Virus record (IMG/VR): IMGVR_UViG_2602041644_000008
Location: 1 to 37,809 of that record
Length of the DNA: 37,809 nt
Source: a virus
Lineage: Duplodnaviria; Heunggongvirae; Uroviricota; Caudoviricetes
Direction: 5' to 3' (one strand)
The position numbers and the translations under genes are program-made. This document shows, one piece after another, positions 36,834 through 37,809 of this stretch. Under the pieces are notes generated by a model. It saw only the letters and a program-made list of their open reading frames with translations, did not search any database and was not told where the DNA came from. Within the stretch, counting starts at the first letter, position 1. Each line of letters begins with the position of its first letter.

Positions 36834-37036
36834 AACCAACACTCCTCTCATTGCTGCGAGGTGGAAAACACAGCATCCGAGATATGGCAAAGATTCTTGG
36901 TATCTCAAGATCGAAGGTTTCTTGGTTCATCGCTGAGCTTGAACGTCGCAAATGGGTAGAGGTAACCAGGAGCGCAATATATTTCCACGATGGAACCAGA
37001 TCCAACAAGCAGAACGAATACAAGGTTAAGTTATGA
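36830..37036 (+). CDS. Small winged-helix/HTH-like protein (68 aa)
   Basis: IRDMAKILGISRSKVSWFIAELERRKWVEV is HTH-like. Stop overlaps the next start. Confidence 0.4.
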   Translation: MKPTLLSLLRGGKHSIRDMAKILGISRSKVSWFIAELERRKWVEVTRSAIYFHDGTRSNKQNEYKVKL

Positions 37037-37581
37037 ATACTGGCATCTATTTCGACATCAGCAATGAGGACTACCACGCCGGTGACGGCGTGAGTAAGTC
37101 GCAACTAGACATGGTTGCCAAGAATCCGGCGCTTCTTAAATGGGTTCAGGCAGCACCAGAAGACGAAGAGAAAAAGTCTGCACTGGATATGGGAACCGCA
37201 TTGCACTGTCTGCTTCTGGAGCCTGGAGAGTTCGACAAACGCTTCATTGTTTCACCGAAATTCGATCGTCGGACGAAACAAGGTAAAGCTGACGAAGAGG
37301 CATTTCTTCGTGATGTGGCGGATATGGGGATTACGGTACTTGATGCCGAGCAGTGGCGGAAACTGGAGCTGATGCGTGATAGCGCAATGGCTCACCCGGC
37401 GGCACGCTGGATGCTGGAAGCACCTGGTTACTGCGAAGCATCAATGTACTGGAACGATGAAGATACTGGTGAGTTGTGCCGCATTCGTCCAGACAAATGG
37501 CTGAACGAGCACAACGTGATCGTCGACGTGAAAAAGGTTGCAGATATGGACCGTTTTGCATGTCAACGCCACGATGTTTGA
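37033..37581 (+). pseudogene. RecE/YqaJ-like PD-(D/E)XK exonuclease, 3' truncated by IS insertion
   Basis: Motifs GTALHCLLLEPGEF, IRPDKW and IVDVKK (catalytic D-x-K) present. Expected C-terminal region replaced by CQRHDV-stop, read from IS-derived sequence starting near 37561. Confidence 0.5.
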
Positions 37582-37809
37582 CCGTTATTTGCCATTTTCA
37601 TGCCCGCTAAGATACTTTCGTTACTGATGCTGTCCGCTTTTCACCATTTCATCATCACTGATTGGCGTTGTGTTTTTGGTCAGCACTCCAGCTTTACGTT
37701 TCTCTTTTAACCGGTAACTCTCTCCTTTGATATTCAGCGTGGTTGAGTGATGTAGCAACCGATCCAGTATCGCTGTTGCCAGCACGTGATCTCCGAACAT
37801 TTCTCCCCA
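37561..37809 (-). mobile_element. IS21-family insertion sequence, terminal about 250 bp (continues beyond the window)
   Basis: Contains the 3' end of istB. Proposed terminus TGTCAACGCC... begins about 60 bp past the istB stop. Confidence 0.55.
37621..37809 (-). CDS. istB: IS21-family helper protein IstB, C-terminal fragment (gene continues off-window)
   Basis: Translation ..[41 protein letters not shown]..-stop matches the conserved IstB C-terminus ([15 protein letters not shown]...[13 protein letters not shown]). Confidence 0.7.

Follow-up and report, generated by a model that had tools for sequence, protein, structure and literature searches.

IS21 is the type element of the IS21 family and was first described on plasmid R68.45, and RecE, exonuclease VIII of the Rac prophage and partner of RecT, is a protein of 866 amino acids whose C-terminal nuclease domain is represented by the structure 3H4R. 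Members of the IS21 family encode the DDE transposase IstA and the AAA+ helper IstB, possess multi-repeat terminal inverted repeats (TIRs) and show no clear target specificity (PMC10122671). A -35 box has been described in the right TIR of IS21, and the target duplication of IS5376 is reported as 5 bp (PMC10122671). The phiV10-type podoviruses (EC.W1-9, phiv142-3, TL-2011b, ZX5 and phiV10) are 97-98% identical to the structural half of the prophage described here, with 61-97% of 20 kb covered. In Uetakevirus phage records the recE-recT block is uninterrupted, 22 of the 30 matching records extending over at least 80% of it. One of these phages, vB_EcoP_ZX5, integrates at the guaA 3' end with the same 17-bp core as the present prophage; the attP/attB core published for that phage reads, on the opposite strand, as AATCATTCCCACTCAAT, the core found here (PMC9782041).

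The window, which is the whole stretch of 37,809 nucleotides analysed, ends 1 base before the end of the draft contig AYNJ01000093.1 (263,057 bp) of Escherichia coli LAU-EC10. An exact look-up of the truncated nuclease protein encoded at its right-hand end returned this one contig only from a large collection (assembly GCA_000506505.1). LAU-EC10 is an ESBL-producing stool isolate from Lebanon, sequenced by 2x250 MiSeq as a draft of 147 unscaffolded contigs (PMC3931373). The window opens with yfgH-yfgI, followed by lysis, tail-fibre, virion, terminase, replication and immunity genes, and the host element, a Uetakevirus prophage of the phiV10/epsilon15 type, has its integration site at the guaA 3' end. 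The LAU-EC10 copy differs from the Uetakevirus records in having an IS21 in the nuclease gene. The features of the locus are collected in Table 1.

Table 1. Features of the interrupted nuclease gene, the IS21 ends and the surrounding prophage. Plain positions refer to the window and those marked L005 to the second junction locus, on contig AYNJ01000058.1.
Feature	Position	Strand	Remarks
att core AATCATTCCCACTCAAT, 17 bp	1164..1180	.	beside yfgI
Terminator-like hairpin, strong	36246-36265		8 pairs and a T-run; 3' of 194-aa repressor-like gene
Promoter-like site TTGACA-17-AATTAT	36317..36345	+	consensus match only; after the repressor-gene terminator
Nuclease 5' part, codons 1-176, RecE-type PD-(D/E)XK exonuclease	37033..37560	+	retains D154, D165, K167
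Truncated ORF as now read	37033..37581	+	176 nuclease codons, 6 IS-encoded codons (CQRHDV) and stop; 182 aa, ATG start
Target-site duplication TGCA, left copy	37557..37560	.	sequence and junction alignment
IS21 right (istB-proximal) end	37561..37809	-	249 of 2,131 bp; opposite to nuclease gene; cut by contig end
Terminal inverted repeat IRR, TGTCAACGCCA	37561..37571	.	10/11 bases vs left-end repeat TGTCAGCGCCA
istB 3' end	37621..37809	-	last 62 codons and stop of 265-aa AAA+ helper ATPase
IS21 left end and istA start	L005 1-350 (AYNJ01000058.1)		ends ...CACTGGCGCTGACA
Target-site duplication TGCA, right copy	L005 351-354 (AYNJ01000058.1)
Rest of nuclease gene	L005 355 onward		starts CGCCACATCGAGG
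recT	L005 645-1526		RecT Pfam E 1.2e-31 at 645-1523; overlaps nuclease stop codon
AlpA-family gene	L005 1576-1824
Genes further on	L005		PerC, MT-A70, DUF1382, 416-aa tyrosine integrase, then guaA, guaB, xseA
att core, second copy	L005 4512-4528		overlaps guaA 3' end/stop

The truncated reading frame is entered in GenBank as ETE19355.1, 'exodeoxyribonuclease VIII'. Residues 1-176 of its product are identical (176/176) to intact proteins of 273 amino acids, in agreement with an earlier annotation of the sequence alone (hereafter the first-pass annotation), which had described the frame as intact through the catalytic D-x-K (IVDVKK). The catalytic D154...D165-V-K167 stands before the break and aligns with RPDK...IMDVK of 3H4R; the 97 residues on the far side of the break include the conserved YHVQDA(M/F)Y (a QxxxY motif, Q187-Y191). 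Alignment with intact homologues places the break after residue 176, with homology running to 37560, and these homologues continue 97 residues past that point. At the DNA level the intact gene reads ...GACCGTTTTGCA-CGCCACATCGAGG and the window ...GACCGTTTTGCA-TGTCAACGCCACGATG. When 777 bases were compared by megablast with 5,426 complete E. coli genomes, the query split into two parts. Genes annotated as 'PD-(D/E)XK nuclease-like' account for bases 1-528 (the last of them being window 37560), with identities of up to 100%, and istB of an 'IS21-like element IS21 family' accounts for the rest; the two parts occur together in 0 of the 5,426 genomes. An exact search for the 44-bp junction in a contig collection that holds one genome per species, LAU-EC10 not among them, gave 0 matches.

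The gene had been labelled 'RecE/YqaJ-like', and the first half of this label stands. The intact allele aligns with the RecE C-terminal nuclease domain (3H4R) over 257 residues at an E value of 1.9e-77, conserves the RPD...(I/V)DVK and YHVQDA.Y motifs, and is situated directly upstream of, and overlapping, a RecT-family gene. The YqaJ half is not borne out, as neither the truncated nor the intact protein matches the YqaJ Pfam model at E <= 0.01. The only family reported is DUF3799 (PDDEXK-like), which matches the intact allele with E 5.3e-22 and the truncated product with E 5.5e-13, in the latter case over profile positions 1-134 of 233 only; Pfam files the nuclease under this family and under neither the RecE nor the YqaJ models. 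The prophage protein differs from RecE in that even the intact form has only 273 amino acids and, lacking the long N-terminal region, is made up of no more than the nuclease domain, and in that the LAU-EC10 gene is split after residue 176. Since residue 176 of 273 is the last one retained and QxxxY is beyond the break, the complete domain of a RecE-type exonuclease is absent from the window copy, which, as far as its sequence tells, is a disrupted member of this type and not a functional one.

The sequence to the right of the break is IS21 itself. Positions 37561-37809 agree at 249/249 bases with the initial 249 bases of a complete copy in strain TUM9757 (L002 4003-4251), and further 100% matches of the right-end sequence were obtained to annotated IS21 copies, the PGAP label of the matching copies being 'IS21-like element IS21 family'. 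The end of the element had been proposed as TGTCAACGCC at about 37561, and this proved to be exact: 10 independent IS21 right-end junctions, four of them from LAU-EC10, have the common tip ...GGCGTTGACA and then continue into flanks that differ by site. The terminal repeats are of the family type (5'-TG start, CA-3' end), the ends reading TGTCA...TGACA; the left-end repeat TGTCAGCGCCA is the reverse complement of L005 340-350, and the IRR tip reads TTGACA on the minus strand, which is the -35 box known from this end of IS21. The minus strand encodes the C-terminus of IstB, as the first-pass annotation had it: the ORF at 37621-37809 matches IstB_IS21 at profile positions 199-238 of 238 (E 4.7e-16), and the full IstB of the identical complete element matches the same model at 2.5e-90. 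IstA of the complete reference copy contains rve and Mu-transpos_C_2. Complete IS21 copies are 2,131 bp long and encode an IstA of 390 and an IstB of 265 amino acids.

The other half of the prophage is found on contig AYNJ01000058.1 of the same assembly (GCA_000506505.1), the end of which is IS21. The ORF to be expected from a gene caller in the nuclease 3' part was predicted and candidates were looked up, whereby the orphaned 3' part was recovered through an 84-aa ORF starting at M190, the LAU-EC10 'hypothetical protein' ETE23854.1. The rightward extension called for in the first-pass annotation is thus available, and it holds the other IS end, the start of istA and the 4-bp TGCA duplication. 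The left end seen (350 bases) is identical to the complete copy at 349/350 bases, and the N-terminal 83 codons of istA on this contig give HTH matches. The element ends in ...GGCGCTGACA, followed by TGCA and by nuclease codon 177, so that the second junction reads ...CACTGGCGCTGACA, TGCA, CGCCACATCGAGG, and the orientation of the IS is the same at both junctions.

Joining the window up to 37560 with L005 from 355 onward reconstructs an empty site in which 822/822 bases agree with the uninterrupted DETEC-S566 gene and all but 1 with the allele of strain E47. Removing the IS and one TGCA restores the target exactly, as expected of a simple insertion. In total, 599 bases of the element have been seen and match the complete copy (249/249 on the right and 349/350 on the left). 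Within what a short-read draft can prove, the IS21 insertion is established; the interior of 1,532 bp lies between the contig ends and outside the contigs. That no insertion took place, and that the window merely contains a natural ORF end or an assembly chimera, has next to no probability. Its one point of support is that the window alone stops inside a repeat; the intact homologues are 97 residues longer, as a natural stop would not allow, and the missing 3' part, on the second contig, directly follows the other IS21 end and the second copy of the 4-bp duplication. Both forms of this explanation are refuted by the intact homologues and by the second junction with its duplication.

Two other accounts of the junction were considered and rejected. 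Microhomology-mediated joining at CGCCAC instead of transposition is incompatible with the full IS tip TGTCAA and the 4-bp duplication at the other junction. A likeness of the target to the IS21 ends, suggested by CGCCAC and GACCGTT being present in both, has a local-alignment score of 7.0, which corresponds to chance, as 51% of 5,780 background 50-bp prophage windows score at least 7.0 against the IS21 ends.

The two junctions, the TGCA duplication and the 822/822 restoration agree with the central proposal of the first-pass annotation, an IS21-family insertion in the RecE-like exonuclease gene of a prophage. With high probability, then, a single IS21 of 2,131 bp is inserted in codon 176/177 of the RecE-type exonuclease gene of the Uetakevirus prophage at guaA in LAU-EC10. 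By the mechanism established for the family, the target would have been cut in a staggered fashion, here with an offset of 4 bp, IstA would have joined the TG...CA termini of IS21 to these cuts, and the TGCA duplication would have resulted from repair. All four other complete IS21 copies have 2,131 bp between their ends, and 4-bp duplications flank three of the four (ATGC, AACA and TGCC). The IS21 in a KilA-N prophage gene of TUM9757 is bordered by a 3-bp repeat (CCA) only (L002 3999-4002 and 6134-6137); this strain has 10 IS21 places, and recombination between copies may have swapped flanks. No difference from known IS21 was found in the element sequence seen; only the insertion site is new, being absent from the 5,426 complete E. 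coli genomes. Both the element and its behaviour are known, and the event is an ordinary one, the relevance of which is mainly to annotation: IS21 has split one RecE-type gene into the parts annotated as ETE19355.1 (182 aa) and ETE23854.1 (84 aa), and a copy of it very probably links AYNJ01000093.1 and AYNJ01000058.1 as neighbouring contigs.

At least four distinct right-end junctions show that IS21 is present in several copies in LAU-EC10, where it is a main cause of contig breaks, and it is because of these copies, at least four in number, that the present contig was broken by the short-read assembler. Positions 1-251 of three further loci (L016, L021 and L022, on AYNJ01000120.1, AYNJ01000129.1 and AYNJ01000139.1, respectively) are additional LAU-EC10 right ends, and all the LAU-EC10 right-end junctions are located at contig ends, about 249-251 bp into the element. 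At L021 251-275 the IS21 copy adjoins GCATACAC-TGTCAACGACGG, about 50 bp from the istB end of another IS21-family element, whose IstB has 260 and IstA 340 amino acids. The TGTCAAC found there, 8 bp from the IS21 tip, looks like the terminus of that neighbour element. In strain 23CRST050 (L026) an IS21 copy is likewise found beside an IS100-type element.

Multiple copies bear on two further explanations of the same contig ends. In the first, two direct IS21 copies would flank a larger insert, arising either as a cointegrate from a tandem IS21 junction on a plasmid or as a composite transposon. Tandem IS21 action is known, and a shortened IstA ('cointegrase') catalyses replicon fusion (PMC10122671). 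In a short-read draft such an arrangement would give identical contig ends and the same 4-bp duplication, and some of the right-end junctions, of which LAU-EC10 has at least four, are on small contigs with plasmid-like or IS-rich content. If this were true, replicon fusion through the cointegrase pathway would have left the prophage of an ESBL strain with far more foreign DNA than 2.1 kb, in the form of a large mobile segment bordered by direct IS21 copies. Positive evidence for it is nil, however, its prior probability is low and complete genomes show simple insertions with ends 2,131 bp apart in 4/4 copies, and it is rated as very unlikely. In the second, a simple insertion would have been followed by homologous recombination with another IS21 that inverted or translocated DNA, so that the prophage halves are no longer adjacent. 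Several copies are available in LAU-EC10 for such an exchange, which would leave the junction sequences in the draft unchanged; on the other side, no evidence points to it, the flanks (yfgH-yfgI on one contig and guaA-guaB-xseA on the other) are those of the intact prophage in complete genomes, and only a very small chance is accorded to this history.

Under the single simple insertion, the nuclease is very likely to have lost its function, as the QxxxY motif and 97 residues are removed; the inactivation proposed in the first-pass annotation is a sound prediction from these losses. Fragments of RecB/RecE-type PD-(D/E)XK nucleases lacking these parts of the fold should be inactive. The exonuclease would keep D154, D165 and K167 and lose Q187-Y191 with the 97 C-terminal residues, and the lost residues would belong to the domain that in RecE forms a ring tetramer. 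Because the exonuclease would be inactive, the RecET-type double-strand-break recombination of the phage itself would be lost as a result. LAU-EC10 would accordingly provide a phiV10-like temperate phage that is naturally recE-minus and recT-plus, usable to ask whether the exonuclease is needed in induction or growth.

It had further been suggested that the insertion may have crippled the prophage, as an example of domestication. Possible routes would be a block to excision through polarity on the AlpA-like gene, or the loss of a recombination function needed for growth. The suggestion finds no support and is regarded as improbable. The IS does lie in the probable early-left operon, upstream of recT and of the AlpA-family gene, and the exonuclease is very likely dead. 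Against this, intact copies remain of the integrase gene (416 aa), of recT, of the AlpA-like gene as a candidate for the excisionase and of the two 17-bp att cores, and the repressor, the replication genes and the compared structural and lysis genes also appear intact; those structural ORFs that were compared do not differ in length from their DETEC-S566 counterparts. The split gene contains 0 mutations, and the event is confined to one strain (0 of 5,426 complete genomes and one contig in a large collection). The integrase region is displaced to the right, as had been stated, yet by only 2,135 bp. By coordinates the prophage measures 40,554 bp without and 42,689 bp with the insertion, and 42.7 kb is inside the 39.1-44.8 kb range of sequenced relatives. 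A packaging-size limit was rejected as a cause of crippling, since related phages with sequenced genomes reach 44.0-44.8 kb, more than the 42.7 kb found here. Phages can do without RecET/Red-type functions in recA+ hosts. Domestication also implies selection for retention, to which nothing in the present data speaks. An excision or growth defect is possible, if unsupported.

The rest of the prophage appears intact and the event recent. The insertion appears recent because the junction is present in 0 of 5,426 complete genomes and the split gene carries 0 substitutions; since LAU-EC10 also has at least four IS21 right-end junctions, it looks like a recent, strain-specific IS21 hit and not like long-term domestication. 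The recent insertion suggests that IS21 is still active in LAU-EC10.

Gene order makes it probable that the site at 36317-36345 is the early-left promoter of the operon containing the nuclease gene, recT and the AlpA-like gene. The layout of repressor gene, terminator and promoter resembles that of lambda cI, its terminator and pL. IS21 is inserted about 1.2 kb downstream of this site, in the orientation opposite to the operon, and early-left transcription would have to cross 2.1 kb of antisense IS, so that expression of recT and of the AlpA-like (excisionase-type) gene may be reduced. A scan across IS21 in the direction of the phage operon gave one weak terminator-like and one promoter-like site, numbers that do not exceed those in shuffled sequence. 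A hybrid outward promoter formed from the TTGACA tip of the right end was rejected, as the minus strand has no promoter-like site across the junction.

Other apparently split copies of the nuclease gene are of different kinds. In two metagenome loci (L006 4566-4665 and L007 4007-4106) apparent deletions in the nuclease 5' part were rejected as such, being runs of about 100 N in mid-gene, either masked sequence or a scaffold gap, which explain why gene calling gives the 84-aa C-terminal ORF in these loci. In two short contigs from metagenome or read assemblies (L010 and L011) the nuclease is split into two ORFs by a single indel relative to DETEC-S566, which may be a frameshift or an assembly error, and the same 84-aa C-terminal ORF is present without any IS.

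Some further features of the prophage were observed outside the nuclease region. A tRNA-Arg(TCT) gene at window 25772-25848 (+) is flanked by the portal and terminase genes, and related prophages carry this annotation as well. Window 3082-9186, comprising the tail-fibre gene (3621-5936, 771 aa, no Pfam match) and a moron region with a weak YafO-toxin-like ORF at 8671-9183, matches the DETEC-S566 prophage, elsewhere a close one, only in patches, a pattern that would fit exchange of host-range and cargo modules. Finally, in the nin-like region a 164-aa ORF at 30718-31212 (-) shows a sub-threshold match to Mom (E 2.9e-5, 24.2 bits vs a cut-off of 27.1), and relatives have a SAM-dependent methyltransferase at about the same place.
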